IMG/VR virus record: IMGVR_UViG_3300030104_006170
Reading direction: 5' to 3' (one strand)
DNA length: 64,000 nucleotides
Source: a virus
Lineage: Duplodnaviria; Caudoviricetes
The notes under the pieces were generated by a model. That model searched no databases. It worked only from the letters and a program-made list of their open reading frames with translations, and was not told where the DNA came from. Both the position numbers and the translations under genes were made by a program. The first letter of the stretch is position 1. Every line of letters starts with the position of its first letter. Of this stretch, positions 561-19,067 are shown in pieces.

Positions 561-1658
561 ATGAGTTTATCGATAGTATTTAGTACAAAAAAAATAAATG
601 AAGATTTTGTTAAATTAATAAAGTCTACTTGTGGGGTACATAATGTTGAGGTTTTGCCTTACGAAAATCCTGGAAAATACTCACTTAATGAGGTCTATAA
701 CATGGGTTTAAAAAAAGCTACTAACGATAAAGTCGTATTTTGTCATGATGATATAAAATTTGATACGAAAAATTGGGGTAGAAAAATGTTAAAGAACTTT
801 TCTAAACATCCTGATTTTGGAATTATAGGCGTAGCAGGCACTAGATACCTTTCAACTACCGGTAGATGGTGGGACGACTTTTCAAAAATGCATGGTGCTG
901 TATACCACGAAAAAGATGGCAATAGGTGGTTAACAAGATATTCTAAAGATATAGGACTTAATTTAATGCCTGTAGTCTTAGTGGATGGGTTGTTTTTTGG
1001 GGTTTCTAAAAGTAAGTTAGTTAAACATTTTGACGAAAGTATAAAAGGATTTCACTTCTACGATGTAGAATTTTGTTTTTCTAATTTTTTAGAGAACGTT
1101 AAAATAGGTGTTTGTACTAATGTTAGAATAACTCATTTATCTATTGGTCAAACTAATGATGAATGGGAAAAAAACAGAGAGGTTTTTGCTGAAAAATATA
1201 AAGATAAGTTACCTGTTAAAATGAATAGACCTTTTTACGATAATGAAAAATTTGATATTTTAATTAGTACCGTATCTTTAAATGAAGAAATAATGGACCT
1301 ATCAATAAACATTAAGAAACTAGGGCATAATTTATCTTTATTATGTGAACACTCTAGTTCACATAAGAAATTTTTAAATAGAAAAGGTATCGATATTCAT
1401 CCTATTAATACACCCCCTGGTTTTAAAATGGGTGATGGGGAGTGGGCTTTGAGTGGGCCTAAAGGTCCTATCCAATCCGAAAAAGGTAAATTATATAAAA
1501 TGAAAGAGATTAAATTTGATGTTATACATACCACGGACAATCAAATTATGGAGTACATGAAAAATTTCTTTCCTAACACACCACAATTCAATAGTGATGA
1601 TGATGAGGGGTTAAAGGGTGATTTAATAAAAAAATATAAAAAAGTTTTAGAATGGTAA
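561..1658 (+). CDS. GT2-like glycosyltransferase with additional C-terminal domain
   Basis: SLNEVYNMGL, VFCHDDI, FGIIGVAG, VDGLFF, FHFYDVEFC match the Glyco_tranf_2_5-type pattern. Confidence 0.7.
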   Translation: MSLSIVFSTKKINEDFVKLIKSTCGVHNVEVLPYENPGKYSLNEVYNMGLKKATNDKVVFCHDDIKFDTKNWGRKMLKNFSKHPDFGIIGVAGTRYLSTTGRWWDDFSKMHGAVYHEKDGNRWLTRYSKDIGLNLMPVVLVDGLFFGVSKSKLVKHFDESIKGFHFYDVEFCFSNFLENVKIGVCTNVRITHLSIGQTNDEWEKNREVFAEKYKDKLPVKMNRPFYDNEKFDILISTVSLNEEIMDLSINIKKLGHNLSLLCEHSSSHKKFLNRKGIDIHPINTPPGFKMGDGEWALSGPKGPIQSEKGKLYKMKEIKFDVIHTTDNQIMEYMKNFFPNTPQFNSDDDEGLKGDLIKKYKKVLEW

Positions 1659-2437
1659 AAATAGTTTCTGGTTGGAGTAATCGTGGTGGTTCTACTTTCG
1701 CATTTATAAATCTTACAAATGCATTAAATAAAGCTGGTTATGATACTACATTTTATGGTCCTCATGAATGGCATTTAGATAAATGTAAATCTGGTAGGAT
1801 GAATGAAATAAACATGAGTAAAAATGATAATATGATTTTTCATTTTATACCTTTAAATGGTAGACCTGATGTTAGAAAAGTTTTGTTATCTTGTCACGAA
1901 AAGAATATTTTTGAAGTTGGTGATATCCCTCAGTATTGGGATGAGGTTGTTTTTTTAAATAAAAAACAAAGAGAATACCATAATAGATACAAAGGTAGAT
2001 ATAACATAATACCTAATCTTAAAGAAGTTTTAGAAAATAAACCTAAGTCAGCAACAGCAAAAGGTGTAGCAGGAATTATTGGTTCTATAGACGAAAATAA
2101 ACAAACTCATATTTCAATACAAAAAGCTGTAAAAGACGGATTTAAGAAAATTATGTTATTTGGTAATGTGACCGACCCTAACTATTATAATAATTTTGTA
2201 AAACCACTTATCGATGAAAAGGTGATAGAAAGAGGTTTTATTAGTGATAAACAAAAAATATATGATGAAGTAGAAGCTGTGTACCTATCATCAAATAGTG
2301 AAGTAGCTTCATTAGTAAAAGATGAGTGTGAAACTACTGGCACAAAATTTTATGGTAGTAAAGCTACTGAACATGATGTAATAAACCTATCTAATGATGA
2401 AATCATAAAAGAATGGGTTAAAGTTTTAGATTTATGA
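1652..2437 (+). CDS. GT-B/GT4-like glycosyltransferase
   Basis: N-terminal GWSNRGGST...LTNALNKAGYDTTFYG, IIPN, AGIIGSIDENK, YLSSNSE. Confidence 0.6.
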   Translation: MVKIVSGWSNRGGSTFAFINLTNALNKAGYDTTFYGPHEWHLDKCKSGRMNEINMSKNDNMIFHFIPLNGRPDVRKVLLSCHEKNIFEVGDIPQYWDEVVFLNKKQREYHNRYKGRYNIIPNLKEVLENKPKSATAKGVAGIIGSIDENKQTHISIQKAVKDGFKKIMLFGNVTDPNYYNNFVKPLIDEKVIERGFISDKQKIYDEVEAVYLSSNSEVASLVKDECETTGTKFYGSKATEHDVINLSNDEIIKEWVKVLDL

Positions 2438-3120
2438 TTATAGGTAATGGACTTATCGCTAAATCATTTTTAAAAAAACACGATAAAGATGATATTGTTA
2501 TTTTTGCGTCAGGAGTATCAAACTCAAAAGAAGATAATCCAAAAAATTTTAAAAGAGAAAAAGACTTATTACTAAAAACCCTAGAAACCCACCAAGAAAT
2601 AAAATTTATATATTTTAGTACTGTCCTTATTGGTTATAAACATAATCCATACTATTCACATAAAAAAGAAATGGAGAATTTAATAAGATTACACGCTAAA
2701 GATTATATCATATTTAGAGTTCCACAATTAATAGGTAGTTGTGGAAATAATAATAATCTTATAAACTATCTAGTGGGTAAGATAAAGTCAGGTGAGTCTT
2801 TTAAAGTTTATGGTAACCTTAAAAGAGCTGTGGTAGATATAGAAGATTTAGTTAATTTTGTTATGTATTGTGAAAACAAAATTAGTTGTAAAACTGTTTA
2901 TGTGGGGGGTATAGAACCTATTTCTGTTGTTGACTTATCAAAAATAATTCAATATTTTTTTAATGTTAATGATGGTAATTTAAAGATGGAAATTAAAGAT
3001 ACTAATGAAGATAATAGATGGACTTCATTGACAAGTCCCATTTTTAAAGATTATTTATCTGATTTTAGTATTGAGTCTAGGGGTTACACACAAAAAATAA
3101 TAGAAAAATATATAAAATAA
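2434..3120 (+). CDS. NAD-dependent epimerase/dehydratase/reductase (short SDR)
   Basis: IIGNGLIA Rossmann start, FASGVSNS, YFST, YxxxK (YYSHK), IFRVPQLIG. Confidence 0.7.
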   Translation: MIIGNGLIAKSFLKKHDKDDIVIFASGVSNSKEDNPKNFKREKDLLLKTLETHQEIKFIYFSTVLIGYKHNPYYSHKKEMENLIRLHAKDYIIFRVPQLIGSCGNNNNLINYLVGKIKSGESFKVYGNLKRAVVDIEDLVNFVMYCENKISCKTVYVGGIEPISVVDLSKIIQYFFNVNDGNLKMEIKDTNEDNRWTSLTSPIFKDYLSDFSIESRGYTQKIIEKYIK

Positions 3121-3126
3121 TAAATT

Positions 3127-3849
3127 ATGATAGTACTAACTGGTTTTTATAACGCTGAACAATATATAGAGCGTTGTCTTGCTACTATTCAGTCTCAAGA
3201 CTATAAAGATTTTACATGTTATATAACACATGACCATTCTACAGATAATTCAGTAAATTTAGTAAAAGAATTTATTAAAGATGACAAAAGATTTGTTCTA
3301 GTTGAGGAGAGTGATAAAAAATTATATCAAGCTGGAAACTTTGATACTGTTATTCGTAATAACCCTAATATAAAAGACAGTGATGTCCTAGTAGAGGTAG
3401 ATGGTGATGACTATCTTCCTGATAGAGGGGTTTTGAGTAGAATTAATAAACTTTACGAGGATGAAAATGTCTGGATTGCTAACGGTAGTTTTAGATATTC
3501 TAGTGGACAACCAGGATTTTCCCAAAAACAAACAGGTTTTGATAACTTGAGACAGGTTAGGTTTACAGCTTCTCATATTAGAACTTGGCGTGCATTTTTA
3601 TGGAGAAATATAAAAGAAGAAGACTTACGTGATGAAAATGGTGATTACTGGCAGTGGAGTGGTGATTTGTGTTTTATGTACCCAATGTTAGAAATGTCAG
3701 GAGAAGAACATTATAGATTTATGAATGAGGTAAATTACGTATATAACGAAACCAACCCAATAAATGAACACAAAATAGATATGACGATGGTTAATAACCA
3801 CGCATCAAGAATAAGAAGTAAAAAACCATATAAAAAATTAAAAATATGA
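3127..3849 (+). CDS. GT2 glycosyltransferase
   Basis: FYNAEQYIERCL, DHSTDNS, VDGDD (DxD). Confidence 0.85.
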   Translation: MIVLTGFYNAEQYIERCLATIQSQDYKDFTCYITHDHSTDNSVNLVKEFIKDDKRFVLVEESDKKLYQAGNFDTVIRNNPNIKDSDVLVEVDGDDYLPDRGVLSRINKLYEDENVWIANGSFRYSSGQPGFSQKQTGFDNLRQVRFTASHIRTWRAFLWRNIKEEDLRDENGDYWQWSGDLCFMYPMLEMSGEEHYRFMNEVNYVYNETNPINEHKIDMTMVNNHASRIRSKKPYKKLKI

Positions 3850-5147
3850 AAAAAATAGATAGTATATTACCAACACTGTTAAATTATTTACAGGAAAATA
3901 AACCAAAATACTTATACAACCAATCCTTTGTGCCTGGTGAAAGTCAAGTACTATATTCAGGACCTTACTGGGATGAGGAAGAAATTATGGCAGCCATTAA
4001 AACTTTTATAGAAGGTAAGTGGGTAGTTGCTGGAGAAAATGTAAATAAATTTGAACGTGCTTTTGGTAGAGTTTTTGGTGCAAAATTTGTACAAATGGTA
4101 AATTCTGGTAGTTCAGCTAATTTAGTTCTAATATCGGCTCTAAAAAAATATTTTGGTTGGGAGGATGGTGACGAAGTCATAGTTTCTCCCGTTGGATTCC
4201 CAACAACTATATCTGTTTTGGTGCAGAATGGTTTAAAACCAGTTTTTATAGATATAGAGTATGAAACACTTAACTTTGACATTACAAAAATAGAAGAAAA
4301 GATAACCCCTAAAACTAAAGCTATTTTTGTTTCTCCTGTCCTGGGTAATGTTCCTGACATGGACTTTTTAACTGAATTATGTAAAAAACACGACATAAGA
4401 TTAATTGGTGATAGTTGTGATAGTATTGGGTCTAAATGGGATGGTAAACACTTAAGTGAATATTACGAAGCGTGGACATCTTCTTTTTATCCTGCACACC
4501 ACATATCAACAGGAGAAGGTGGAGCTGTATGTACTAACATAGCACCATTAAAAAGATTATTTACTAGTTTTGCTTGGTGGGGTAGAGATTGTTATTGTGT
4601 TGGTTCTGCTAATTTATTATCGTGTGGTACTTGTGGTAAAAGATTCGATAAATGGTTAGATTCTTATGACGGAATAATTGACCACAAATATGTTTTTACT
4701 AATATGGGTTATAACCTAAAACCTATGGATTTACAAGGTTCTATTGGACTTATTCAGTTAAAGAAATTTGAGGAGATTGACAACAATAGAAAAAGAAGTA
4801 AAAATACCATAGAATCTATATTTTTAAAATATGTTGATGGGATTAAGGGTGTATCTATGTTACCTAAAGCTGACACTTGTTGGTTTGGTACTCCTTTTAT
4901 TTGTGATAATAAACAATTAAAAGATAAACTAGTTGCTTTTCTAGAAGAGAATAAAATACAAACTAGAAATTACTTTGCTGGAAACATACTAATGCACCCA
5001 GGTTATAAACATTTAGATGATTTAAATAAGTACCCAAACGCTAATACAGTTTTAGACAAAGTATTTTTTGTGGGGGCAGCACCACATTACACAGAAGAAG
5101 TTTTTGATTATATAGAAAGTATATTTGTTAATAAATGGGAAAATTAA
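3846..5147 (+). CDS. rfbH: E1-type (RfbH/DdhC-like) NDP-4-keto-6-deoxyhexose 3-dehydratase, DegT/DnrJ fold
   Basis: VNSGSSANL, SFYPAHHISTGEGG (His in place of the Schiff-base Lys), GRDCYC...CGTCGKRF Cys cluster, QTRNYFAGNI. Confidence 0.85.
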   Translation: MKKIDSILPTLLNYLQENKPKYLYNQSFVPGESQVLYSGPYWDEEEIMAAIKTFIEGKWVVAGENVNKFERAFGRVFGAKFVQMVNSGSSANLVLISALKKYFGWEDGDEVIVSPVGFPTTISVLVQNGLKPVFIDIEYETLNFDITKIEEKITPKTKAIFVSPVLGNVPDMDFLTELCKKHDIRLIGDSCDSIGSKWDGKHLSEYYEAWTSSFYPAHHISTGEGGAVCTNIAPLKRLFTSFAWWGRDCYCVGSANLLSCGTCGKRFDKWLDSYDGIIDHKYVFTNMGYNLKPMDLQGSIGLIQLKKFEEIDNNRKRSKNTIESIFLKYVDGIKGVSMLPKADTCWFGTPFICDNKQLKDKLVAFLEENKIQTRNYFAGNILMHPGYKHLDDLNKYPNANTVLDKVFFVGAAPHYTEEVFDYIESIFVNKWEN

Positions 5148-6541
5148 AAGTTTTAGTATTAGGTGATGGTTTACTAGGTTCGGAAATTGTTAAACAAACC
5201 GAATGGGACTATATTTCTAGAAAGAAAGATGGTTTTGATATTACTGATATGGAAACTTATCATTTACTAACAAATGTAGAATTTGGTGCTATACAACATT
5301 GTAAATATGATATTATTCTTAATTGTATTGCAAATACAGACACTTACAGTACTGATAAAGATTTACACTGGAAAGTTAATTACGAAGGTTTATCTAATCT
5401 AATTAAATTTTGTAATGACTGGAAAGTAAAATTAGTTCACATATCCACAGACTATGTTTATTCTGGTTCTGATACAGAGGCTACAGAAAATACCGTACCT
5501 GTTCACTGTAACAACTGGTATGGTTACACTAAGTTGTTAGGTGATGGTTTGGTTCAACTAAACTCAAATAATTACCTTTTATGTAGGTGTACTCACAAAC
5601 CTAAACCATTTCCTTATGATGGTGCTTGGATTGACCAGGTTGGTAATTTTGACTATGTCTCTAACATCTCAAAACTTATCATAGATATGATAACCAATAA
5701 TTTAAGTGGTTTATATAATGTGGGTACTGAAACTAAAACAATATATGAACTGGCTTCCGAAACAAGAAAAGTTAAAAAAATATATGCACCACAACAAGTA
5801 CCTAAAAATCTTTCTATGAATTTAGATAAATTACATAAAGGTTTAAATAAACCATTTTTTTCCATAGCTATACCAACTTATGGATACAATGGAAGAGGGG
5901 TTGAGTTTTTAGATTTTAGTTTAGAAATTATAAGTAAACAAACTTTTAAAGACTTTGAAGTTGTGTTATCAGACCATAGTGAAGATGATACTATAAAAGA
6001 GGTTTACGATAAGTGGGCTGACAAGTTAAATATCAAATATTTTAGGAATTCTAAAGGTAGGGGTATCATATCTCCTAATATAAATAACGCTATGAAGTTA
6101 TGTAACGGTAAATGGATTAAAGTTTTATTCCAAGACGATTTCCTATATAACGAAAACTCTTTAGAACTACAACACGAATTACTAAACGCTCAACCAAACA
6201 TAAGTTGGGTTATGACTAAATTCTATCATAGTAATGACGGTAAGTCGTTTTATAGACTATACAACCCAAGATGGAATAATATGATATGGACTGGAAATAA
6301 TACCATGGGATGTCCTACTGGTATGACCATTAAAAATAAAAATCTAATATTTTTTGACGAAGGTTTAAATTGGTTGATGGACGTAGATTATTACAAACGT
6401 ATGTTTGATTTACATGGTGAACCAACTATATTAGATGAAATAACAGTAGTTAATAGGACTTGGGGTAATAGACTTACTGATACCATACCTCAGTCTTTAA
6501 AAGATAAAGAATTTGAAATGTTAAAACTTAAATATGCTTAA
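5135..6541 (+). CDS. Fusion: RmlD-like NDP-sugar reductase + GT2 glycosyltransferase
   Basis: N-half VLGDGLLG, HISTDYVY, YGYTK; C-half SIAIPTY, LSDHSEDD, LFQDD, WLMDVDYY. Confidence 0.8.
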   Translation: MGKLKVLVLGDGLLGSEIVKQTEWDYISRKKDGFDITDMETYHLLTNVEFGAIQHCKYDIILNCIANTDTYSTDKDLHWKVNYEGLSNLIKFCNDWKVKLVHISTDYVYSGSDTEATENTVPVHCNNWYGYTKLLGDGLVQLNSNNYLLCRCTHKPKPFPYDGAWIDQVGNFDYVSNISKLIIDMITNNLSGLYNVGTETKTIYELASETRKVKKIYAPQQVPKNLSMNLDKLHKGLNKPFFSIAIPTYGYNGRGVEFLDFSLEIISKQTFKDFEVVLSDHSEDDTIKEVYDKWADKLNIKYFRNSKGRGIISPNINNAMKLCNGKWIKVLFQDDFLYNENSLELQHELLNAQPNISWVMTKFYHSNDGKSFYRLYNPRWNNMIWTGNNTMGCPTGMTIKNKNLIFFDEGLNWLMDVDYYKRMFDLHGEPTILDEITVVNRTWGNRLTDTIPQSLKDKEFEMLKLKYA

Positions 6542-7199
6542 TTTAAAAAATGTAACACTTATAGCCCTAAGTTCAATAAAACTAGAAAAAACCATTAAAG
6601 CTTTAGAGTATAGTTGTCGTGGAATTAGTTTTGGTGAGGTTAAATTAGTTTCTGACACAAGACCTGATAATTTACCTGATTTTATCACTCATGAATTTTG
6701 TCCTAAAATGTCCAATATAGATGAATGGAATTACGCTGCGATATATGAGTTACCTAAACATGTGTCTACGGAATTTGCTATGTTAATACATGATGATGGA
6801 TTTGTTGTTAACCCAGAATCTTGGCGTGATGAGTTTTTTGAGTATGATTATATAGGTGCTCCTTACCCACTACCACAAGATAATTTTTCGTATAGAGACA
6901 TAAATGGTAATCTGATAAGAGTTGGTAATAGTGTTTCTTTAAGAAGTAAAAAATTACTAGACTTACCTATAGAATTAGATTTGGAATGGAAAGCTTTTCA
7001 TGGATATTATAATGAAGACGGTTATATTTGTGTAAACTATCGACATAAGTATCTTGAACATGGTATGAAATTTGCTGATATAGACGTTGCCAAATATTTT
7101 TCACACGAAAATATGATGCCTGAGATTCAAGGAATAAAACCTTTTGCTTTCCATAGACACTATGGAACAAACTCTATTTACCCAAACTATGGAAAATAA
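6534..7199 (+). CDS. DUF5672-like putative glycosyltransferase-associated protein
   Basis: LIHDDGFVVNPESW, YDYIGAP, VGNSVSLRSKKLL, NEDGYIC, FSHE, FAFH. Confidence 0.65.
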   Translation: MLNLKNVTLIALSSIKLEKTIKALEYSCRGISFGEVKLVSDTRPDNLPDFITHEFCPKMSNIDEWNYAAIYELPKHVSTEFAMLIHDDGFVVNPESWRDEFFEYDYIGAPYPLPQDNFSYRDINGNLIRVGNSVSLRSKKLLDLPIELDLEWKAFHGYYNEDGYICVNYRHKYLEHGMKFADIDVAKYFSHENMMPEIQGIKPFAFHRHYGTNSIYPNYGK

Positions 7200-7923
7200 A
7201 AAAATACATACTAATTTTGTAGTCGCTAGTGATTACAATTGGTTACCTGAAAATCTAGAGGATTCCTGGGTACACCAATACACAGATAACTATTTAATCT
7301 ATGATAAATTTCATAGATTTGAAGAATCCGATAAAGTTAAACATCAACTAAATGTGGGTCAAAATATTTATGATATGTTTGATTTCATTGTTAGAAATTA
7401 TGATAACTTACCTGAATGTACTTTATTTTGTAGAGCATGTTTATTATGGCCAAAAGATACTGGTACACCTAGATTAGACGATAATGGGAATAGGTTGTCT
7501 AATGGTAATTGTGGGTTAGATAAATTCCATGAGTTGATGAATAACAATACATTTACAGAATTGCATGATTTTGGTCCTGAAGCACACAAAGGTCCTGGAA
7601 GTAAGATGGCTGAAGATGGTGGGTTTTTAGAAATTAATAACAGTTGGTATTTCCACCATGTACCATCTAGACACTTTAACAATACCAATGCTTTTCTACA
7701 GGACGTATTTGTAAATCCAGAATTACCAGAATATATAAGATTTTCACCTGGTGGAAACTATATAATACCTAAACACACTATATTAAAGTATAGTAAAAAC
7801 TTTTATGAACAAATAAGAAAAATACTTAACTGGGATGTTGTTGTTGGTGAAGCACATCTTATTGAGCGTTGTATATATACTTTTTTTACTTGTGACTATG
7901 AGGTAAACGAAAAATATAAATAA
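7189..7923 (+). CDS. DUF3431-like glycan-related protein (start moved to MENKK at 7189)
   Basis: W...Y.IYDK, NVGQN...FIVRNYDNLP..TLF, FSPGGNYIIPK..IL...FY, LIER. Confidence 0.5.
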   Translation: MENKKIHTNFVVASDYNWLPENLEDSWVHQYTDNYLIYDKFHRFEESDKVKHQLNVGQNIYDMFDFIVRNYDNLPECTLFCRACLLWPKDTGTPRLDDNGNRLSNGNCGLDKFHELMNNNTFTELHDFGPEAHKGPGSKMAEDGGFLEINNSWYFHHVPSRHFNNTNAFLQDVFVNPELPEYIRFSPGGNYIIPKHTILKYSKNFYEQIRKILNWDVVVGEAHLIERCIYTFFTCDYEVNEKYK

Positions 7924-8834
7924 TGTCAACAATCAGAGCTTTCATGTTTCACGATGTTAGGGATTTATCACAAACTGAGTACCCTAGCAGATATAATCTA
8001 AGGTCTTTTATAGATAAAAAGGAATTTAACCACCAACTAAACTTTATAAATAAAAATTATAAAATAATAAGTAGTTTGGAGGTGCCTAATTTAAATTTAG
8101 ATGATGGTAATATAAATTATGCTGTTTTAACTTTTGATGATGGGTTGGTCGACCATTTTTATGTTCACCAACAATTAAAAAAACTGAATATTAGTGGTAC
8201 TTTTCTAATACCTACGGCTCCTGTTGTTGAACAAAAAATGATTCACAGTCACACAATACAATTTATTTTAGCTGCGAGAGATGAAAAATTATTAACCAAA
8301 GAAATTTTATTAAACTTTGAGAACTCTTCTGACTTATGGATTAAGTATTCCCACACCAACTGGGTAGACAATTGGTGGACTAAAGAGATGATATTTGTTA
8401 CTAACTTTTTAAGACGGTACAAATCTCCGACTTTTAATAATTACCAGTATACGGAACATCTTTTCCAAAAATACGTTTCTAAAGATATCCATTCTTTCGC
8501 TTCTAACTTTTATCTTAACCCAAACCAAATAGAAGAAATGAGTTACAATAATATGGTTATAGGTGGACATGGTAATTCCTCAGACAATCTTTTACTGGTA
8601 GAAGATATCGAGGCTGATATAAATAGGTCACATTGGTTTGTTGAGCATTTTTCCGATGATTTTGTTTTTTCTTACCCTAATGGTGGTTTTAATCAAGAAA
8701 TAAAAAATACTTTAAAAAAGTATAAATGTAAGTTATCTTATACCGTAGTACCCCAAACCCTAACTTCATTAGATAATATAGACGTTTTAGAGTTTCCTCG
8801 TTACGATTCTCCACAAAGAATACCATTAAAATGA
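7923..8834 (+). CDS. Polysaccharide deacetylase (NodB/CE4 family)
   Basis: MFHDV, LTFDDG, IGGHGNSS, FSYPNG. Confidence 0.85.
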   Translation: MSTIRAFMFHDVRDLSQTEYPSRYNLRSFIDKKEFNHQLNFINKNYKIISSLEVPNLNLDDGNINYAVLTFDDGLVDHFYVHQQLKKLNISGTFLIPTAPVVEQKMIHSHTIQFILAARDEKLLTKEILLNFENSSDLWIKYSHTNWVDNWWTKEMIFVTNFLRRYKSPTFNNYQYTEHLFQKYVSKDIHSFASNFYLNPNQIEEMSYNNMVIGGHGNSSDNLLLVEDIEADINRSHWFVEHFSDDFVFSYPNGGFNQEIKNTLKKYKCKLSYTVVPQTLTSLDNIDVLEFPRYDSPQRIPLK

Positions 8835-11105: not shown

Positions 11106-12003
11106 TTTAACGGGTAATTTAGGAAATCACATGTGGCAATATGCTGTTTGTAGAACTATAGCAGAAGAACTAGGGTATGAATGGGGTATTAACCCAACGC
11201 CTAGTCACGATTATTTTAACGGTGCAAATCAAATGGATTTTATGGATGTAGATTTTGGTATGGTGGTAAGTGGTATTGTTAACGAATATCATGAGCCTTG
11301 GAAAACCTACCACCATGTAGACGCTGTAAACATAACAATGTTAAACTCTAGTTTATATGAAATAGATGATAATACCATTTTAATAGGAGATAATGGAGCG
11401 AAAGGTGGTATATATCAATCTGAAGAATATATTAAAGATAGGAAGGATGATATTTTAAAGTGGTTTAAGATAAAAGACAATAAAAAGAAAGAATACAATA
11501 CTAAATTAAATGAACTAGGAGTTACCTTAGATGAAAATACTTGTATTATTAATTTTAGAGGTGGTGAATATAGAGGTATACCTAATGTTTTATTACGTAG
11601 AGAGTATTGGCGAGATTGTGTGAATTACATGTTAACTTTAAATCCAAATATGAATTTTGTGGTAGTTACTGATGACCCACCAACAGCCTCACAATTTATG
11701 CCTTTTCAAATGAAATGTATTCACATAGACGTAGGTTTTGATTATTATTGTGTTAACCAAGCTAAATGGTTAATCATATCCAACTCAACGTTTGGGTGGT
11801 GGGCTGCATGGTTAAATGAAACTTGTAACAAAATTATAGCTCCCAAATATTGGGCAAGACATAATGTTAGTGATGGTTATTGGGCAACAGGTGACGCTTA
11901 CACCTCATGTTTTAATTATATGGATAGAGAAGGTTCTGTATCTGATTTTGAAACTTGTAAATCTGAAGCATTAAATTATTATAAATTAAAAAATATTATT
12001 TAA
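11092..12003 (+). CDS. GT11 alpha-1,2-fucosyltransferase-like protein
   Basis: GNLGNHMWQYA, YQSEEY, INFRGGEY, IISNSTFGWWAAWL, IIAPKYW. Confidence 0.85.
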   Translation: MITTNLTGNLGNHMWQYAVCRTIAEELGYEWGINPTPSHDYFNGANQMDFMDVDFGMVVSGIVNEYHEPWKTYHHVDAVNITMLNSSLYEIDDNTILIGDNGAKGGIYQSEEYIKDRKDDILKWFKIKDNKKKEYNTKLNELGVTLDENTCIINFRGGEYRGIPNVLLRREYWRDCVNYMLTLNPNMNFVVVTDDPPTASQFMPFQMKCIHIDVGFDYYCVNQAKWLIISNSTFGWWAAWLNETCNKIIAPKYWARHNVSDGYWATGDAYTSCFNYMDREGSVSDFETCKSEALNYYKLKNII

Positions 12004-12867
12004 ATGGGAAAAATATATGATTGTTTTAATTTCTTTAATGAGTTAGACATTTTAGAACTAAGATTAAATATTCTCTACGAACATGTAGATTATTTTGTAA
12101 TTGTAGAATCTACAGTTACTCACTCTGGCCAACCTAAACCTTTTTACCTAGAAGAAAATAAGGAACGTTTTTCTAAGTTTTGGGACAAGATTATTAGTTT
12201 TAAAGTATCTGACACACCTGAAGATTTTGTTAACCTTACTAACACAGGATTTTTCGACGCTGAATTAGATAAGGTACACTACTATATCCGTACACAAACT
12301 AATAGGTTTGATAGGCGTACACAAGTAGATTATGGTAGAGATTTTTTTCAAAAAGAATCGGTTAGAAGAGCTCTAGTAAATTGTAATGAAGATGATATAA
12401 TTATTATATCAGATGCTGACGAAATACCAAACCCAGAAATACTTAAAGATTTAAAGTCTCTTTCTTTAGATAATACAATATATTCCCTCTCCCAACCAAT
12501 GTATTCTTATTACTTAAATATGTTAAGTGATTCGGACTGGCACGGTTCAAAAATGGGTCTATATAAAAACGTAAAAGAATTATCTTTTAACGAAATTAGG
12601 GGTGATTCAAACCTAACAACTAAATTGACTAATGGTGGATGGCATTTTAGTTTTATGGGTGGTGAAGAAATGGTGAAAACAAAAATAACATCTTATTCGG
12701 CTAGGGATTTAGTCAATGACCAAGTCCTATCAAGTATTAAGAGTAATATAGAAAATGACCAAGATGTTTTTTTTAGAGGTAAATTAACAAAAGTAAAATT
12801 AGACGAAAGTTTTCCAGAATACGTATTAAATAATATACCATATTATAGTAAAATGATTAAAGAGTAA
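12004..12867 (+). CDS. GT17 (MGAT3-like) beta-1,4-N-acetylglucosaminyltransferase family
   Basis: YDCFNFFNELDILELRL, VDYFVIVES..THSG..KP, ISDADEIP, GGWHFSFMGG. Confidence 0.85.
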   Translation: MGKIYDCFNFFNELDILELRLNILYEHVDYFVIVESTVTHSGQPKPFYLEENKERFSKFWDKIISFKVSDTPEDFVNLTNTGFFDAELDKVHYYIRTQTNRFDRRTQVDYGRDFFQKESVRRALVNCNEDDIIIISDADEIPNPEILKDLKSLSLDNTIYSLSQPMYSYYLNMLSDSDWHGSKMGLYKNVKELSFNEIRGDSNLTTKLTNGGWHFSFMGGEEMVKTKITSYSARDLVNDQVLSSIKSNIENDQDVFFRGKLTKVKLDESFPEYVLNNIPYYSKMIKE

Positions 12868-12871: not shown

Positions 12872-13648
12872 ATGATTATTAGTAAAATAATGGGTGGGCT
12901 AGGTAATCAAATGTTTCAGTATGCTTACGCAAGAAATTTATCTAATTTAAATAACACTAACTTTTATCTAGATACCTCGTTTTATAATAATCAAATTGGT
13001 GTGACCCCTAGAGTGTTTAGTTTAAATTCTTTCCCTAAAGCTTCTATAAATATAGAAATTCCACAAGTAGAAAGTATCCAAGTCATTAATGACAACTTTA
13101 AATATGATTCCACCAAATTAATTAAGGGTACCTGTCTATTACAAGGTTATTGGCAAAGCGAAAAATACTTTAATGACTCTAAAAATTTAGTACTAGAGGA
13201 CTTTTCTCCTGATGAAACCAATAGAAAAAAGTTACTTAAAAAATACCCTAAAGTAGGGGGTAATACAATATCTTTACATATTAGAAGAACAGATTATTTA
13301 ACATCTAATGGTTATCATCCAGTACAAACTATTGATTATTACAATAAAGCTATAGATATTTTAGGTACATATGAAAATATTTTTATATTTTCAGATGATA
13401 TAGACTGGTGTAAAAATAATTTAAATTTCAAAAATATGGTTTTTGTTGAGGGTAATAAAGATATAGAAGATTTATGGTTAATGTCTTTATGTAGAAATAA
13501 CATTATAGTTAATTCTTCTTTTAGTTGGTGGGGTGCTTATTTAAATAAGAATGTCGATAAAATAGTTATTGCTCCATCTAAGTGGTTTGGTGATGGTGTT
13601 ACCTTAAATACTGAGGACATACTACCAAAAAAATGGATTAAACTTTAA
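12872..13648 (+). CDS. GT11 alpha-1,2-fucosyltransferase
   Basis: GGLGNQMFQYA, GYWQSEKYF, LHIRRTDY, IFSDDIDWC, NSSFSWWGAYL. Confidence 0.92.
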   Translation: MIISKIMGGLGNQMFQYAYARNLSNLNNTNFYLDTSFYNNQIGVTPRVFSLNSFPKASINIEIPQVESIQVINDNFKYDSTKLIKGTCLLQGYWQSEKYFNDSKNLVLEDFSPDETNRKKLLKKYPKVGGNTISLHIRRTDYLTSNGYHPVQTIDYYNKAIDILGTYENIFIFSDDIDWCKNNLNFKNMVFVEGNKDIEDLWLMSLCRNNIIVNSSFSWWGAYLNKNVDKIVIAPSKWFGDGVTLNTEDILPKKWIKL

Positions 13649-13652: not shown

Positions 13653-14636
13653 ATGGGTACGAATAAAACAGCTTTAATAACAGGGATAAATGGTCAAGAT
13701 GGTTCATATCTTGCTGAACTACTTTTAAAAAAAGGTTACAATGTTTGGGGTATATTAAAAAGAAATTCTGTTTCTGAGAACCAGACAGCTAGAATACCGG
13801 AAAACATATACCAAAAACTTAATTTAGTTTATGGTGATTTATTAGACATCCCATCTTTAATTAATGTATTACAGAAATCTAAACCAGATGAGGTATATAA
13901 TTTGGCGGCACAATCACATGTGAGAATAAGTTTTGACCAACCAATTTACACAACCCAGGTCACAGGATTAGGTACTCTAAATTTATTAGAAGCTATAAGA
14001 TTAACCAACCCCAACATTAAAATATATCAGGCTAGTTCTTCTGAAATGTTTGGCAATAATATAGATAGTGATGGATACCAAAGAGAAACCACACCAATGG
14101 AACCGGTATCACCATATGGGTGTGCAAAAGTTTTTTCTTACAATATTTGTAAAAACTATAGAAACTCATATAATATGTTTATTTCAAATGGGATTCTATT
14201 TAACCATGAATCACCAAGGAGAGGTACAAACTTTGTAACTAATAAAGTCGTTAAAGAAGCTGTAAAAATAAAATTAGGGTTATCTAATGAACTTAAATTA
14301 GGTAATATGAACGCCAGTAGAGATTGGGGACACGCTAAAGATTATGTAAAAGCGATGTGGTTAATGTTACAAGAAGACTCCCCGGCTGACTACGTATGTT
14401 CTACAGGGATTTCACATACGGTTAAAGATTTGGTAGAATATGTATTTGGTTCATTAGAATTGGATTGGGAAAAATATGTGAGACAGGATAAAAAGTATTT
14501 ACGACCTGAAGAATTAGAACATTTAAAAGGCGACTGTTCAAAAATAAAATCAGAGTTGGGTTGGTCACCTAACTATAATTTCGAATCTATGTTAGATGAG
14601 ATGATTGAATATTGGTTAGAGTATTATGAAAAATGA
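13653..14636 (+). CDS. gmd: GDP-mannose 4,6-dehydratase
   Basis: ALITGINGQDGSYLAELLL, YNLAAQSHV..SF, YQASSSEMFG, NGILFNHESPRRG..FVT.K, RDWGHAKDYV. Confidence 0.97.
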   Translation: MGTNKTALITGINGQDGSYLAELLLKKGYNVWGILKRNSVSENQTARIPENIYQKLNLVYGDLLDIPSLINVLQKSKPDEVYNLAAQSHVRISFDQPIYTTQVTGLGTLNLLEAIRLTNPNIKIYQASSSEMFGNNIDSDGYQRETTPMEPVSPYGCAKVFSYNICKNYRNSYNMFISNGILFNHESPRRGTNFVTNKVVKEAVKIKLGLSNELKLGNMNASRDWGHAKDYVKAMWLMLQEDSPADYVCSTGISHTVKDLVEYVFGSLELDWEKYVRQDKKYLRPEELEHLKGDCSKIKSELGWSPNYNFESMLDEMIEYWLEYYEK

Positions 14637-15576
14637 TATGGAAATAATGGATGTTGGTGAGGTACATGTGAAAAGACCTAATTTATTAGTTACTGGTGGT
14701 CATGGTTTGGTCGGTAGCCAAATTAGTTCTGGTATAAAAATAGGTAGTATTGTAGATTTAAGAAATTCACAGATTTGTGATGCTTTTTTTAATGACACAA
14801 AACCCATAAACGTTGTTCATTGTGCAGCTAAAGTAGGTGGTTTAGGTGGTAATATGAATCTAAAGGGTGAGTTTTTTTACGACAATATCATGATAAATAC
14901 AAATGTGATAGAATCCTGTAGAAAATATGGGGTAAAAAAATTAGTTTGTTTTTTATCAACTTGTGTTTTTCCAGATAATGTAGAATACCCATTAACAGAA
15001 AAAAAGATACATCTAGGTGAACCCCATAACTCTAATTATCCGTATGCATATGCTAAAAGAATGGCAGATATACAAATTAGAGCATATAGAGAGCAATACG
15101 ATTTAAATTATGTATCTGTAATACCAACTAATATATATGGACCAAACGATAACTTTAACTTAGAAAATGGACATGTAATACCTTCATTAATCCACAAATG
15201 TTATTTAGCCAAAAAAAATAATACCCCTTTTAAAATATGGGGAAGTGGTAAACCACTTAGAGAATTTATATACTCAGAAGATGTTGCTAAGCTAACTGAA
15301 TGGGTTTTAGAGAATTATAATGAAGAAGAACCAATTATATTATCTACGTCTGAAGAAATATCTATTAGAGATGTTGTTAAATTAATAATTAAACATATGG
15401 ACTTTAAAGGTGATGTCATATGGGAAGATGAGAAACCTGATGGACAATTTAGGAAACCTAGTGATAATAGTAAATTAATGTCTTATTTACCAGATTTTAA
15501 ATTCACTAGTTTAGATGAAGGATTAAAAAAAACAGTTGATTGGTTTGTATCAAACTATAAATTATGTAGAAAATAA
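14626..15576 (+). CDS. fcl: GDP-L-fucose synthase (GDP-4-keto-6-deoxymannose epimerase/reductase)
   Basis: AAKVGGL..N, FLSTCVFP, YAYAKR, PTNIYGPNDNF, HVIPSLI, WGSGKPLREF, KPDGQ.RK. Confidence 0.95.
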   Translation: MKNDMEIMDVGEVHVKRPNLLVTGGHGLVGSQISSGIKIGSIVDLRNSQICDAFFNDTKPINVVHCAAKVGGLGGNMNLKGEFFYDNIMINTNVIESCRKYGVKKLVCFLSTCVFPDNVEYPLTEKKIHLGEPHNSNYPYAYAKRMADIQIRAYREQYDLNYVSVIPTNIYGPNDNFNLENGHVIPSLIHKCYLAKKNNTPFKIWGSGKPLREFIYSEDVAKLTEWVLENYNEEEPIILSTSEEISIRDVVKLIIKHMDFKGDVIWEDEKPDGQFRKPSDNSKLMSYLPDFKFTSLDEGLKKTVDWFVSNYKLCRK

Positions 15577-15586: not shown

Positions 15587-16330
15587 ATGGGAAGAAGAAG
15601 TAAAAAATTAAGTAGAGAGGAACAAATGGAGGTAGAAGAATGGATTTACCAAAATAATACCGAAGAAAAAAGACTTTCGGACACTATGACGATTAGTGTT
15701 AAGTGTAAAACAGAAAACCAAAAATCTCTGGTTAACGCTATAAAAGAAAAAGAGGTCATAATTTGTTCTGGACCAGCTGGTACAGGTAAAACTTATTTAG
15801 CGTGTGCTGAAGCACTAAAACTAATCAAACGTTACGCTAAATATAAAAAAATTGTAATTGTAAAATCTGTAACCACATTAAAGAATGAGGAAATTGGGTT
15901 TCTTAAAGGTGGTTTAAGAGAAAAAATGGAACCTTTTATGTTTTCATTTGTACATAATTTTGAGAAGTTGGTGGGACAAGCTATAACTTCTAGACTTAGA
16001 GAATTAAAAACTATAGAAGAATTACCTATTGCTTATATGAGAGGTATTAATTTGGATAGGTCTATTATTATTATAGATGAGGCTCAAAATATATCACAAG
16101 AAAATATAAGAACTATTATGACTAGGTTAGGTAAAGATTCTAAAATGATATTCTTGGGTGATGAAAGACAACAAGATTCTAAAGGACATAATGGACTGAC
16201 CTTTTTAATGGACCACTTCCAAGACATAGAGGAGATTGGGTGTGTTCAGTTTAATAAATCAGACGTGGTAAGAAACCCATTAATAGCTAAAATAGAAAGG
16301 GTTTTTGATTCTTTACATATTGGTAGATAA
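15587..16330 (+). CDS. phoH: PhoH-family ATPase
   Basis: GPAGTGKTYLA, GFLKG, PIAYMRG, IIDEAQN, TRLG..SK..FLGD..Q.D, DVVRNPLI. Confidence 0.95.
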   Translation: MGRRSKKLSREEQMEVEEWIYQNNTEEKRLSDTMTISVKCKTENQKSLVNAIKEKEVIICSGPAGTGKTYLACAEALKLIKRYAKYKKIVIVKSVTTLKNEEIGFLKGGLREKMEPFMFSFVHNFEKLVGQAITSRLRELKTIEELPIAYMRGINLDRSIIIIDEAQNISQENIRTIMTRLGKDSKMIFLGDERQQDSKGHNGLTFLMDHFQDIEEIGCVQFNKSDVVRNPLIAKIERVFDSLHIGR

Positions 16331-16345: not shown

Positions 16346-16918
16346 ATGATAATTAGTGTAAGTATAAACGGTGTATTAAGAGATATTTTGGGTAAGTTCG
16401 AACAAATTTATGAAAAATATAGTGGTAAAGAGGTAAAATCTCCGGTAATAACACCTGACTTGATGGAGTATGTGGATTTTAAAGATGATGACGAATTATT
16501 AGATTTTTTATATAATGATGCAACTATGGAAATATTTGGTCAGGCAAAAGAAACAGAAAATAATGTTATTTCTCACTTAGTAGAACTTTACAAAGAAATG
16601 CCTGTAGATTATAAATTAAGAATAGTTAGTGATGATTTAGGTAAATCTAAATCTGCCACATTATGGTTTTTATCTAAATATGGTTTAGTTTGTGATGAAA
16701 TAGTTTTTTATACAACCGATACCATATCCGAATTATGGGATAAGAGTGATATTTTTATAACTGCAGATACAGACATAATAAATAATAAACCAAAAGATAA
16801 AAAATTAATAATAATAGATAAGTGTTATAATGAAGGAATGAAAAGTGACTTGAGGATTAACACACTAAGAAAAATAAAATCGTTAGAAAATGCCTTTGAA
16901 AAAAACACTATCATATAG
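16346..16918 (+). CDS. HAD-fold 5'(3')-nucleotidase-like protein with degenerate catalytic motif
   Basis: N-terminus ISVSINGVLRD aligns by eye with the I.IDIDGVL.D motif, but both Asp are replaced. Confidence 0.45.
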   Translation: MIISVSINGVLRDILGKFEQIYEKYSGKEVKSPVITPDLMEYVDFKDDDELLDFLYNDATMEIFGQAKETENNVISHLVELYKEMPVDYKLRIVSDDLGKSKSATLWFLSKYGLVCDEIVFYTTDTISELWDKSDIFITADTDIINNKPKDKKLIIIDKCYNEGMKSDLRINTLRKIKSLENAFEKNTII

Positions 16919-17192
16919 TAAACTAAGACTTAAGGTTGGTTCCGAACAACTTTATTTTGATGTTGATGAATTAATGACTAACATTGAAATGGCGGGAAGT
17001 AAGGATGGTAAACCTACTGTAGAAATAAATTTACCTAAATTTGAGTTTTTTAAACTTATGCTAGATACCACCTGTGGTATTGTGGAAGAGGCTGATGAGA
17101 ATTTAGGTGTGGTGTCAATGAATAAATTATCTTTACCTTATAAGTTGGCTCTTAATACATTAATAAAATATAATATAATTAAAAAACTATAA
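16890..17192 (+). CDS. hypothetical protein
   Basis: ORF tiles the operon; no recognised motif. Confidence 0.6.
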   Translation: MPLKKTLSYSKLRLKVGSEQLYFDVDELMTNIEMAGSKDGKPTVEINLPKFEFFKLMLDTTCGIVEEADENLGVVSMNKLSLPYKLALNTLIKYNIIKKL

Positions 17193-17196
17193 TTAA

Positions 17197-18264
17197 ATGG
17201 AAATGGAAAAACAATTATCCCAGTTAAAGTCTGGGTTGTCAAAAATGGAAAACAAAGAAGCTAAAATTTACTTTCTAACTCAGGATACGGAGGGTAGAGC
17301 GATAGCTTCTGTTAACTTAAACTATCAGTATGTAAAGTATTTAAAAGAAGCGGGATTTAACGCATACATTCTTTACGAGAAAAAAGAATACAAGGGTGTT
17401 GGTGATTGGTTACCTAAAGAGTATTCAGAATTACCACACGCTAACATAGAAAGTGGTGAACTTAAAGTAGGACCACAAGATTTTGTAATTATACCTGAAT
17501 TATATGGTCACGTATTAGAACAAATAAAAGATATGCCTTGTACTAAAATGATATTCTGTCAAGCTTATGACTATATTTTAGAAACTTTACAACCTGGATT
17601 TAGTTGGGTTAATTACGGTGTAACAAAATGTATTACAACTACTGAATCACAAAAAGAGTATATTTCTGGTCTTTTTCCTTCAGTAGAAGTTAGTGTTATA
17701 AAACCTTCTATACCTGAATACTTTAAACCTTCTAAAAAACCTAAAACTCCTTTAGTAGCTGTTCATACTCGTGACCCTAGAGAAACTATGAAAATTATAA
17801 AAGAATTTTATTTAAGAAATCCACAATTTAAATGGTTAACTTTTAGAGATATGAGAAATATGAGTAGAGAAGAATTTGCTAAAGTATTAGGTGAAGCTTG
17901 TGTTGGTGTTTGGGTGGATAGAATTAGTGGTTTTGGTACATTCCCTTTAGAGGCTATGAATTGTAATACACCTGTTATTGGTAACTTACCTATTTTAAAA
18001 CCTGATTGGATGTCCCAAGAAAATGGTTTATGGGTTTACGACGAATCTAAAATTGTTGAGGTTTTGGGTAACTACGTTAAGAACTGGTTGGAGGATAATT
18101 TACCATCTAAACTATATGAAGAAATGGCAAAAACAGTCGTCCCTTATAAAGAAGAAGATGAACGTAAATCAGTAATTTCTTATTTTACTAACTTATTTAA
18201 TGAAAAAACGGAAGAATTTAAAAATTCCATAAACAAATTATCCCCTGTGGGTGTAAACGCTTAA
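17197..18264 (+). CDS. GT4-like glycosyltransferase
   Basis: DFVIIPE.YG, FCQAYDY, SGFGTFPLEAMNCNTPVIG (E-x7-E-type region). Confidence 0.75.
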   Translation: MEMEKQLSQLKSGLSKMENKEAKIYFLTQDTEGRAIASVNLNYQYVKYLKEAGFNAYILYEKKEYKGVGDWLPKEYSELPHANIESGELKVGPQDFVIIPELYGHVLEQIKDMPCTKMIFCQAYDYILETLQPGFSWVNYGVTKCITTTESQKEYISGLFPSVEVSVIKPSIPEYFKPSKKPKTPLVAVHTRDPRETMKIIKEFYLRNPQFKWLTFRDMRNMSREEFAKVLGEACVGVWVDRISGFGTFPLEAMNCNTPVIGNLPILKPDWMSQENGLWVYDESKIVEVLGNYVKNWLEDNLPSKLYEEMAKTVVPYKEEDERKSVISYFTNLFNEKTEEFKNSINKLSPVGVNA

Positions 18265-18269
18265 AAGAT

Positions 18270-19067
18270 ATGAATAATAAAGATGTAACAGTTATATTAC
18301 CTATACATAGTGTAGATGGTAAATTTGATGAATGGTTTTCTAAAGCCATAAAAAGTTTAGAACAGACACAAGTAAAACCGGGTTATTTATATTTGGTTTG
18401 TGCTGATGATAAAGAAATTAAAAATTATATGGAATCCTGGACACAACCAGAAGGGTTAACAACTAAAATACTATATAATGGAGGAGAAACTGATTATTGT
18501 AGTCAAATAAATTTTGGTGTTGAGTCTTGTGAAACAGAATTTTTCTCTATTTTAGAATATGATGACGAATATTCAAATATTTGGTTTAAACAATTTAATG
18601 AATACGTAGAGGCTTATGAGGATGTTGATTTATTTTTCCCGTTAGTTGTAGATACTGATGAAAATGGACAGTTTATAGGTTTTACTAATGAGGCTTTATG
18701 GGCAATGGGATTCTCTGAAGATTTAGGATATTTGGATAATAACACACTATTAAAGTACCAAAATTTCCAAGTGAGTGGTATGATAATGAAAAAAGATAAG
18801 TTTGAAGAGGTTGGTGGTTTAAAACCTTCTATGAAACTAACCTTTAATTATGAATTTTTATTACGTGCTACATATAATGACACTGTTATCATGACCATAC
18901 CTAAGGTAGGTTACAAACACACTAATCAAAGAGCAGATTCTTTGTTCTGGGATTACAAATTTAATAAGGATAAACAACTAACACCAGATGAGGCTAAATT
19001 TTGGATTGAGTTGGCTAAAAAAGAGTATTTTTTTACTAAAGATAGGAAAGTAGAATATTCAGTATAG
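18270..19067 (+). CDS. GT2 glycosyltransferase
   Basis: VTVILPIH, YCSQINFGV, ILEYDDEY, DYEF/NYEFLLR-type motif. Confidence 0.75.
   Translation: MNNKDVTVILPIHSVDGKFDEWFSKAIKSLEQTQVKPGYLYLVCADDKEIKNYMESWTQPEGLTTKILYNGGETDYCSQINFGVESCETEFFSILEYDDEYSNIWFKQFNEYVEAYEDVDLFFPLVVDTDENGQFIGFTNEALWAMGFSEDLGYLDNNTLLKYQNFQVSGMIMKKDKFEEVGGLKPSMKLTFNYEFLLRATYNDTVIMTIPKVGYKHTNQRADSLFWDYKFNKDKQLTPDEAKFWIELAKKEYFFTKDRKVEYSV

Follow-up and report, generated by a model that had tools for sequence, protein, structure and literature searches.

The virus record IMGVR_UViG_3300030104_006170 (Duplodnaviria; Caudoviricetes) supplied the stretch of 64,000 nucleotides analysed here, which is referred to throughout as the window and which carries a large array of glycan-synthesis genes at positions 561–19067. 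This locus is a glycan-assembly set that works in the cytoplasm and has no membrane protein of its own; the phage that carries it is an uncultured marine jumbo phage with a distant likeness to T4. Of the readings weighed for the acceptor of the glycan, the single most likely is that the virion proteins of the phage itself are glycosylated in the cytoplasm before or during assembly, a reading to which we give a little less than an even chance.

Layout and gene content of the locus

Every long open reading frame (ORF) from position 2 to 26261 of the window lies on the + strand, with junctions ranging from an overlap of 56 nt to a gap of 16 nt. Between 561 and 19067 there are 22 ORFs, 19 of them related to glycan synthesis, and these hold at least ten glycosyltransferase (GT) domains (four GT2-type, two GT-B, two GT11, one GT17 and one DUF5672 domain with a GT-A fold). 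The initial annotation, made without database searches, had described a co-oriented island of about 18 genes with tight junctions and at least eight GT domains, and both descriptions held. The other enzymes named there (gmd and fcl, an E1-type 3-dehydratase, a PseB/FnlA dehydratase with its reductase, a deacetylase and a formyltransferase) are likewise backed by Pfam, PDB or NCBIfam matches, the call being weak for the reductase at 10395 (E = 6.4e-4). The array was also said to run into PhoH and a sigma gene; these genes are indeed co-oriented with it, but PhoH (15587), together with two small conserved genes, splits the array and is followed by its last two GT genes, and the sigma call is weak. 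The locus begins 5' of the window with one further conserved GT of 412 aa. The features are listed below, where SDR stands for short-chain dehydrogenase/reductase and PMP for pyridoxamine phosphate.

2..559, +: dUTPase, a conserved gene that bounds the variable region on the left (Pfam dUTPase 5.9e-26); adjoins the GT2_5 gene in relatives
561..1658, +: GT2_5-type glycosyltransferase, conserved, opening the island (Pfam PF13712 Glyco_tranf_2_5 1.5e-26; 41-98% identity in relatives)
1652..2437, +: short GT-B-like (Glycos_transf_1/GT4-type) partner of the GT2_5 protein (nearest named clusters in the Atlas: Glycos_transf_1, score 0.96)
2434..3120, +: short SDR-type sugar-nucleotide epimerase or reductase (Pfam Epimerase 5.4e-6)
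3127..3849, +: GT2 glycosyltransferase (Pfam PF00535 4e-15)
3846..5147, +: E1/RfbH-type PMP-dependent NDP-4-keto-6-deoxyhexose 3-dehydrase, DegT family (PDB 3bcx 4.7e-80; NCBIfam RfbH 5.5e-109)
5135..6541, +: RmlD-like 4-ketoreductase fused to a GT2 (Pfam RmlD_sub_bind 1.8e-20, residues 5-152; GT2 1.3e-12, residues 243-394)
6534..7199, +: DUF5672 protein with a GT-A fold, probable glycosyltransferase (Pfam DUF5672 2.3e-10; AF2 pLDDT 94.1)
7144..7923, +: DUF3431-like protein (Pfam DUF3431 3.8e-7); the true start is probably 3' of the listed TTG
7923..8834, +: polysaccharide deacetylase family, de-N-acetylase or deformylase (Pfam PF01522 1e-6); in the closest relatives only
8831..9469, +: short formyltransferase (Pfam Formyl_trans_N 2.8e-15; PDB 1zgh 1.1e-24; sugar N-formyltransferases ~1e-7)
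9469..10395, +: Mg534/PseB/FnlA-type dehydratase (Pfam Polysacc_synt_2 2.7e-39; PDB 4tqg 4.9e-39; NCBIfam PseB 4.5e-48)
10395..11105, +: short Rossmann protein/SDR, putative 4-reductase partner of the dehydratase, assigned by position (Pfam Epimerase 6.4e-4; PDB RfbD homologue E = 0.026)
11092..12003, +: GT11-like, alpha-1,2-fucosyltransferase family (Pfam PF01531 1.4e-5; 63-99% identity in relatives)
12004..12867, +: GT17-family glycosyltransferase (Pfam PF04724 2.5e-26); homologues adjoin GT11 genes in Synechococcus phages
12872..13648, +: GT11, alpha-1,2-fucosyltransferase family (Pfam PF01531 6.6e-27)
13653..14636, +: gmd, GDP-mannose 4,6-dehydratase (Pfam 4.6e-120; NCBIfam gmd 6e-119)
14626..15576, +: fcl, GDP-L-fucose synthase (NCBIfam GDP-L-fucose synthase 2e-70, under the equivalog cut-off; Pfam Epimerase 4.2e-51)
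15587..16330, +: PhoH-like ATPase, a conserved gene that bounds the variable region on the right (Pfam PhoH 1e-58; in 15/15 relatives covering the region)
16346..17192, +: two small conserved genes, a weak NT5C/HAD-like protein (Pfam NT5C E = 0.0097) and a 100-aa ORF; both in 15/15 relatives
17197..18264, +: lineage-core GT-B glycosyltransferase (AF2 pLDDT 88.7; Foldseek AmGGT 8xsg/8xsh); in 15/15 relatives
18270..19067, +: lineage-core GT2 glycosyltransferase (own Pfam GT2 match E = 0.014; homologues with PF00535 or PF10111); in 15/15 relatives
19070..19774, +: putative gp55-like sigma factor, a weak call (Sigma70_r2 E = 0.038; phrog_234 late sigma E = 0.017; 62-99% identity in relatives)
19779..19787, +: earliest ATATTTATA motif on the + strand, where the motif-free array ends (15 copies vs 5.05 expected in the window)

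Several of the GTs were checked beyond Pfam. The model of the protein encoded at 17197 is a confident GT-B fold, and its best matches in Foldseek were the structures of AmGGT (TM-score 0.74–0.77, E = 4e-15, 20–22% identity), with all other matches at a TM-score of 0.62 or less. AmGGT is soluble and homologous to the Agt enzymes of Actinobacillus, which extend glucose on glycopeptides; AmGGT itself acts on free oligosaccharides and not on glycopeptides (PMC12159676). At E <= 0.001 this GT-B has 2406 metagenomic homologues and the GT2 at 18270 has 948, many of them on contigs of 200–420 kb. The protein at 1652 has no Pfam match of its own; its gene is fused to the GT2_5 gene in three relatives (L023, L024 and G003), and the fused homologue in G003 matches Glyco_transf_4 (1.3e-11). 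Searching the PDB with the GT2_5 sequence (561) gave no significant match. The DUF5672 model (6534) was matched best by GT6 and other GT-A transferases, at TM-scores of 0.5–0.6. A blood-group-like glycan, considered on account of this likeness to GT6 and of the GT11 genes, was dropped as a candidate, a TM-score of about 0.55 among GT-A folds being too unspecific. Nothing useful was found in the literature on DUF5672 and DUF3431.

The phage itself is a jumbo phage of roughly 250–320 kb. Its major head protein (phrog_138, 2.2e-67), portal protein (phrog_213, 1.2e-63) and large terminase (3e-40), encoded at 26.8–35.9 kb, are of a distant T4 type. The nearest record is a viral contig of 82.8 kb with 99% identity and a completeness rated at 26%, and proteins identical to those of the window are present on a 240-kb contig. 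All or part of the stretch is contained in 20 public sequencing runs from 14 studies, most of them labelled marine, seawater or sponge metagenomes and none of them an RNA run. A near-identity DNA search for the island among GenBank phages gave no match. The host is probably not cyanobacterial; the best 120 homologues of gmd, all metagenomic or on contigs of phage size, indicated no host.

Elsewhere in the window, a phage-encoded tmRNA gene lies at 49708–50113 on the + strand, with the predicted tag peptide AKLATLGLVHEESTVAVA. Between the structural blocks, a protein matching phrog_22485 over its full length (E 7e-262; 41850–43724, - strand) is encoded beside a Lon/AAA-type ATP-dependent protease (phrog_4871, 1e-235; 43903–45939, + strand). 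A further relative (G005; L043-L045, G005:C1:42059-44356) has a thymidylate synthase Pfam match in three pieces within one open frame of 780 aa, which suggests an intein or other large insertion.

Conserved framework, exchangeable cassettes and predicted sugars

The locus was compared with 22 related loci, 15 of which cover the block from PhoH to the sigma-like gene. The order PhoH, NT5C-like gene, 100-aa ORF, GT-B, GT2, sigma-like gene and next gene is kept in all 15, and the two 3' GTs are 45–99% identical across them. The most complete relative, G002, is a 270-kb record (88% complete; sigma-like gene 62% identical to that of the window) in which the whole island is syntenic. Its island has a DegT aminotransferase (30% identity) in place of the E1 dehydrase and lacks both gmd/fcl and the cassette of deacetylase, formyltransferase, dehydratase and reductase, four genes that travel together and were found in the closest relatives only. 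In G003 (sigma-like gene 80% identical) the interval from dUTPase to PhoH shares only the GT2_5 gene and gmd with the window, its middle being occupied by FkbM and other methyltransferases, a GT2, a GT-D-like protein, an APH-type kinase, a DegT aminotransferase, an FdtA isomerase and an HMGL-cytidylyltransferase fusion. The 412-aa GT 5' of the window (phrog_7162, 6.5e-38) is 69% identical in G003 and 52% identical in G002.

The framework present in every relative examined consists of this 412-aa GT, the GT2_5 gene with its GT-B partner, the GT-B at 17197 and the GT2 at 18270, while the content between dUTPase and PhoH is exchanged as cassettes at a fixed site. This is not the distribution of a sporadic accessory, as the framework GTs and the insertion site are kept in all of these relatives and the middle cassette alone varies. 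Such conservation, together with the many homologues, suits a core phage function more than an accessory moron.

Two other observations were made on these loci. A perfect TTGACA-17-TATAAT occurs at L002:2124-2152, about 1.7 kb 5' of the window start and just before the 412-aa GT gene; it is found at the same place in L021 and L025 and not in G002, and it would be odd if the host belonged to the Bacteroidota. G002 has long ORFs of (GVAVID)n-like hexapeptide repeats at 10012-11742, 80931-81770 and 269999-end (L027, L031, L041), which probably represent repeat-containing genes read in the wrong frame or on the wrong strand; one of these ORFs is at the contig end.

Three sugar-nucleotide modules were recognised in the window, namely (i) gmd with fcl, (ii) an E1/RfbH-type 3-dehydrase beside SDR reductases, one of which is fused to a GT2 (5135), and (iii) an Mg534-type dehydratase module. 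For gmd there are many copies of 82–91% identity on contigs of 200–424 kb. When the protein at 3846 was aligned to 3bcx, a His was found at the position of the lysine that binds pyridoxal phosphate (PLP) (E1 His220), with 'YPAHHI' in both proteins, and the H220K mutant structure 3bb8 shows K in this column; the 'WGRDCYC...C..C' cysteines are also kept. We take the His to replace the PLP-binding Lys, as in E1, and the cysteines to be the [2Fe-2S] motif. No E3 reductase and no CDP-glucose synthase or 4,6-dehydratase was found within the island by Pfam, NCBIfam and PDB annotation of its genes; the adjacent SDRs may substitute for the E3 partner, or the substrate of the 3-dehydrase may be the gmd product. 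The best solved relative of the dehydratase at 9469 is Mg534 of Megavirus chilensis (4tqg), the first enzyme of UDP-L-RhaNAc/L-QuiNAc synthesis, which comes from a fibril-glycosylation cluster (PMC10117803). For the reductase at 10395, nothing significant was found in the PDB.

It is possible to propose a chemistry for these modules. Host GDP-mannose would be converted by gmd and fcl to GDP-L-fucose, for use by the two GT11-family enzymes. The E1-type dehydrase and the neighbouring reductase would give a 3,6-dideoxyhexose, and the RmlD-GT2 fusion suggests that this sugar may be handed directly to the GT2 of the fusion. From UDP-GlcNAc, the Mg534-type dehydratase and the 10395 reductase would make a 2-acetamido-2,6-dideoxy-L-hexose, on which the adjacent deacetylase and formyltransferase may swap N-acetyl for N-formyl. 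The framework GTs would build an inner glycan that is conserved, to which a variable outer part of fucosylated, deoxy-sugar character would be added by the GTs of the cassettes.

The acceptor of the glycan

The absence of any Wzx/Wzy/WaaL/GtrA-type membrane protein and of obvious transmembrane segments, as first seen by eye, was borne out by a Kyte-Doolittle scan (19 residues), in which the island ORFs showed no membrane segment other than one marginal stretch (1.76) inside the GT2_5 domain. Five related records gave no match to Polysacc_synt/Wzx (PF01943), Bac_transf (PF02397) or Glyco_transf_9, with positive controls in each search. Repeat artefacts aside, about five is the largest number of membrane segments predicted for any ORF of G002, and none resembles Wzx or Wzy; nor does the island or G002 contain a Gtr-type small multi-segment flippase or GT-C-like protein, the GtrA Pfam model itself not being among those searched. 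The check for flippase or ligase genes elsewhere in the genome, which the initial annotation had proposed, thus came out negative in a relative that is 88% complete, having been run on relatives and not on the window's own whole genome.

From the missing flippase it had been argued that the acceptor is cytoplasmic (virion proteins or DNA) and not host O-antigen. The soluble character of the set and the virion as the likeliest target are retained here, but the step itself fails, since LPS (lipopolysaccharide)-core-like loci without Wzx/Wzy exist and host MsbA can export the product, and DNA is judged a far poorer candidate than the host envelope. Most O-antigen and LPS-core GTs are soluble, and extension of the LPS core needs no Wzx, Wzy or WaaL. 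Homologues of the GT17 in Bacteroidota sit in loci of the form GT4-GT2-GT9-FkbM-GT17, again without Wzx/Wzy and in an LPS-core-like context. The full locus, GT4-GT2-GT9-FkbM-GT17-methyltransferase-GT2 beside an ECF sigma gene, was seen on a Marinoscillum chromosome (L052:3664-10661) and in L049, L053 and L054; it is probably of LPS-core type and a possible source of the phage GT17.

What argues for the virion proteins is that the framework GTs are conserved across the lineage, that the enzymes are soluble with no carrier machinery in the island or G002, that the core GT-B is structurally nearest to a relative of the glycopeptide-extending Agt enzymes, that the dehydratase is nearest to a Megavirus enzyme among solved structures, and that the array abuts a block of genes carrying the ATATTTATA structural-gene motif. 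To our knowledge, every virus-encoded soluble multi-GT cluster that has been resolved experimentally targets the virion or DNA, and this was counted in favour of the same reading. By analogy, the virion proteins would be glycosylated as they are in chloroviruses, mimiviruses and some mycobacteriophages.

The ATATTTATA motif also marks a boundary. About 12 of its copies lie a few to ~40 nt 5' of co-oriented gene starts, those of the terminase and other structural-region genes included (positions include 19779, 24262, 25733, 35912, 40314, 41073, 45947, 49442, 55004, 55799 and 63328), and it is a candidate late promoter that would mark late genes. The first + strand copy directly follows the sigma-like gene, a placement that is the same in seven of the ten relatives checked. 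As there is no copy on the + strand before 19779, and as neither sigma-70-type promoters (103 vs 116 expected) nor intrinsic terminators (10 vs 6.4 expected) inside the island exceed chance, a single long unit that lacks the structural-gene motif appears to run from the island through PhoH to the sigma-like gene. Co-orientation with the 'late sigma factor' of the initial annotation is no sign of late expression, the sigma call being weak and ATATTTATA being absent from the island; a ten-sequence profile of the sigma-like gene found no match in the PDB, nor was there one in NCBIfam. The genes at 19791–26261 have no match in PHROGs, Pfam or the PDB, and it is the promoter-like motif that suggests a structural role for them.

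Other repeated signals were noted in the window. An identical TTATTATCTTTGTAGT stands directly before the ATG of three + strand genes (47072-47082, 58622-58632 and 60946-60956); it contains TAnnTTTG, which we take to be the form of the Bacteroidota -7 promoter box, and it sits too near the ATG for an ordinary leader. A leader that differs from ATATTTATA, ATAATAATAAAC...TTTTAAAAAAAATAAAAAAAC, is common to the major capsid gene and its 5' neighbour (- strand; 28614-28680 and 30171-30235) and may represent a separate promoter class for very highly expressed genes.

A number of points weigh against the virion proteins as acceptor. The Ser/Thr-rich tails expected on glycosylated virion proteins were not found on those of the window, where 45 ORFs (19.8–63.7 kb) showed no Ser/Thr-rich tracts or tails, with at most 11 Ser/Thr per 30 residues. 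No initiating protein GT was recognised, GT41/NGT (PF13844) being absent from the five related records. Soluble GTs are equally normal in LPS and O-antigen synthesis, likeness among GT4-type folds says little about the acceptor, and the Bacteroidota homologues of the GT17 occur in the LPS-core-like loci described above. The + strand from 1 to 19778 is without any ATATTTATA copy, in contrast to the glycosylation genes of Mimivirus, which have late promoters (PMC10117803). Published readings of analogous cyanophage clusters favour modification of the host surface (PMC1079782, PMC7824862). Finally, the searches for carrier, export and acceptor genes covered the window and related records, not the window's own complete genome.

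Remodelling of the host envelope is an alternative which we regard as a real possibility but on balance improbable. The soluble phage GTs would then work on the inner membrane from its cytoplasmic side, with host lipid A-core (lipooligosaccharide) or undecaprenyl-linked intermediates of O-antigen, capsule or the Bacteroidota general O-glycan as acceptors; host MsbA, Wzx or ABC exporters would carry the altered glycan outward, and the changed receptors would block superinfection or the adsorption of progeny to infected cells and debris. The clusters of Synechococcus myoviruses, which are very similar (GT17 beside GT11, gmd, DegT, GT2, FkbM), have been read as surface-modifying (PMC1079782; PMC7824862; PMC12801897). 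The Bacteroidota GT17 loci imply that a product can reach the surface without membrane genes from the phage. As in serotype loci, close relatives (G003 and the window) differ by wholesale exchange of the middle of the locus, and the best NCBIfam match of the E1 enzyme is the LPS enzyme RfbH. Absence of a late-type motif from an array that runs with dUTPase and PhoH would also fit early or middle expression. On the other side, exclusion or serotype genes are not usually part of a lineage's core, as the four GTs are here, and no GT9, Kdo, phosphoglycosyl transferase, flippase or ligase gene was found in the relatives. We also know of no experimental demonstration of glycan remodelling by a strictly lytic phage.

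DNA, the other acceptor named in the earlier proposal, appears very unlikely; on this reading some or all of the GTs, above all the two core GTs beside nucleotide-metabolism genes, would glycosylate modified bases of the phage DNA to evade restriction. Core GTs of T4-like phages classically glucosylate hydroxymethylcytosine DNA, and those found here sit among nucleotide-metabolism genes (dUTPase, NT5C-like, PhoH). For the moraphages, a group of aquatic jumbo phages, DNA glucosylation has been named as one option (PMC12619734). However, the sole thymidylate synthase homologue of G002 is a canonical ThyA with a high ThyA score and the dUMP-specific Asn (FNIAS), with no second thymidylate synthase or hydroxymethylase homologue, and none of the 50 best Foldseek matches of the GT-B model is titled as a T4 DNA glucosyltransferase, these being GT4-type enzymes by their titles. 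More than ten GTs, fucose, dideoxyhexose and N-acyl sugars also go far beyond known DNA glycans. A Tet/JBP search was blank, as was its control, and carries no weight.

Some other cytoplasmic target is unlikely, if less so than DNA; it could be host or phage non-structural proteins, glycosylated so as to disarm a defence or retarget an enzyme, or a free or small-molecule-linked oligosaccharide. Soluble enzymes without carrier machinery fit such a target, as does the use of free oligosaccharides, and not of glycopeptides, by AmGGT (PMC12159676), whose solved fold is nearest to that of the core GT-B. Cassette variability, however, points to an exposed, selected surface. A system of more than ten GTs in such a role is without precedent known to us.

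With the virion proteins as the preferred acceptor, we tentatively propose that this widespread lineage of marine tailed jumbo phages may coat its virions with a complex glycan, produced wholly by phage enzymes in the cytoplasm, of fucose, 3,6-dideoxyhexose and 6-deoxy-L-HexNAc, possibly N-formylated, the framework building the inner part and each cassette a specific outer 'serotype'; for this fuller proposal the chances are appreciably below even. If true, such a coat would be the bacterial-virus counterpart of the autonomous glycosylation of giant viruses.

Comparison with known systems

The purpose of large glycan clusters in big T4-like phages has been under discussion since 2005. The present locus adds one abundant marine lineage in which part of the machinery is core and the rest is cassette-swapped at a fixed site, with no carrier-lipid or export genes alongside, even in a nearly complete relative. 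If the virion is the target, tailed phages would join the giant viruses as makers of their own serotype-like coats, with a bearing on adsorption, grazing, stability and host recognition; if it is the host envelope, this would be a case of a strictly lytic jumbo phage that alters the surface of the cell it is infecting. Although the phage is uncultured, its four framework GTs, being small, soluble and easily expressed, lend themselves well to a first biochemical study.

The idea put forward in the initial annotation has precedents among phages. Comparable clusters in cyanophages of T4 type have been a subject of the literature since 2005 (PMC1079782, PMC7824862), and in 2025 core GTs were noted in jumbo phages with predicted Bacteroidota hosts (PMC12619734). 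Among the nearest known systems are the 'LPS / cell-wall modification' clusters of the cyanomyoviruses P-SSM2, S-SCSM1, S-SCSM2R, S-B05 and RN05-S (Sullivan 2005, PMC1079782; Iyer 2021, PMC7824862; PMC12801897). These are also co-oriented clusters in large T4-like phages, with 15–24 genes that include gmd, SDR epimerases/reductases, a DegT-family enzyme, GT2, GT11 and a GT17 beside GT11, and without flippase or polymerase; the combination of GT17 beside GT11 with gmd, DegT and GT2 was seen in Synechococcus phage RN05-S. Our phage is only distantly related to them (terminase below 30% identity; best GT17 identity 29%). Their clusters have been described as sporadic, whereas a four-GT framework is found here throughout the lineage and the cassettes are inserted at one fixed place, between dUTPase and PhoH; there are in addition the E1-type dehydrase and the Mg534-type module with deacetylase and formyltransferase. 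What is new is therefore the anatomy of conserved framework and variable cassette in a marine lineage that is not one of cyanophages, along with the check for carrier machinery in a near-complete relative, the promoter-motif boundary and the particular sugar modules.

The moraphages, with predicted Bacteroidota hosts and genomes up to ~307 kb (Perez-Hernandez et al. 2025; PMC12619734), resemble our phage in implied size, in their T4-like structural genes and in a core genome that includes PhoH, a sigma factor and four GT orthogroups. They come mainly from fresh water and our phage is marine, and the likeness is one of published description; neither locus architecture nor sugar pathways are given for them (PMC12619734).

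The Gtr and O-antigen modification systems of temperate phages are alike in that phage genes alter a glycan. They differ in that GtrA/GtrB and type-specific membrane GTs act in the periplasm, and no such proteins occur in the island or G002. From N-glycosylation by NGT/Agt (Actinobacillus, Haemophilus), the Agt-family fold is the best structural match here, but a GT41 HMW1C-like initiator is missing from the five related records.

Virion O-glycosylation in mycobacteriophages (Che8 etc.) offers a tailed phage with soluble GTs and no membrane machinery, and there the virion is the proven target. Those phages reportedly have few GTs only, placed beside structural genes; our locus has many more genes as well as sugar-nucleotide synthesis, and no Ser/Thr-rich tails were seen. 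The mycobacteriophage work (Freeman et al. 2023) is cited in PMC12619734 and PMC12801897, and the glycans are placed at the C-termini of capsid and tail-tube subunits (PMC12619734).

The giant viruses (chlorovirus capsid protein; Mimivirus and Megavirus fibrils) infect eukaryotes, their virion glycans are chemically proven and their glycosylation genes are late, whereas the present array has no late-type motif. In gene content, however, they are alike, with sugar-nucleotide pathways of their own, many soluble GTs and gene sets specific to each clade.

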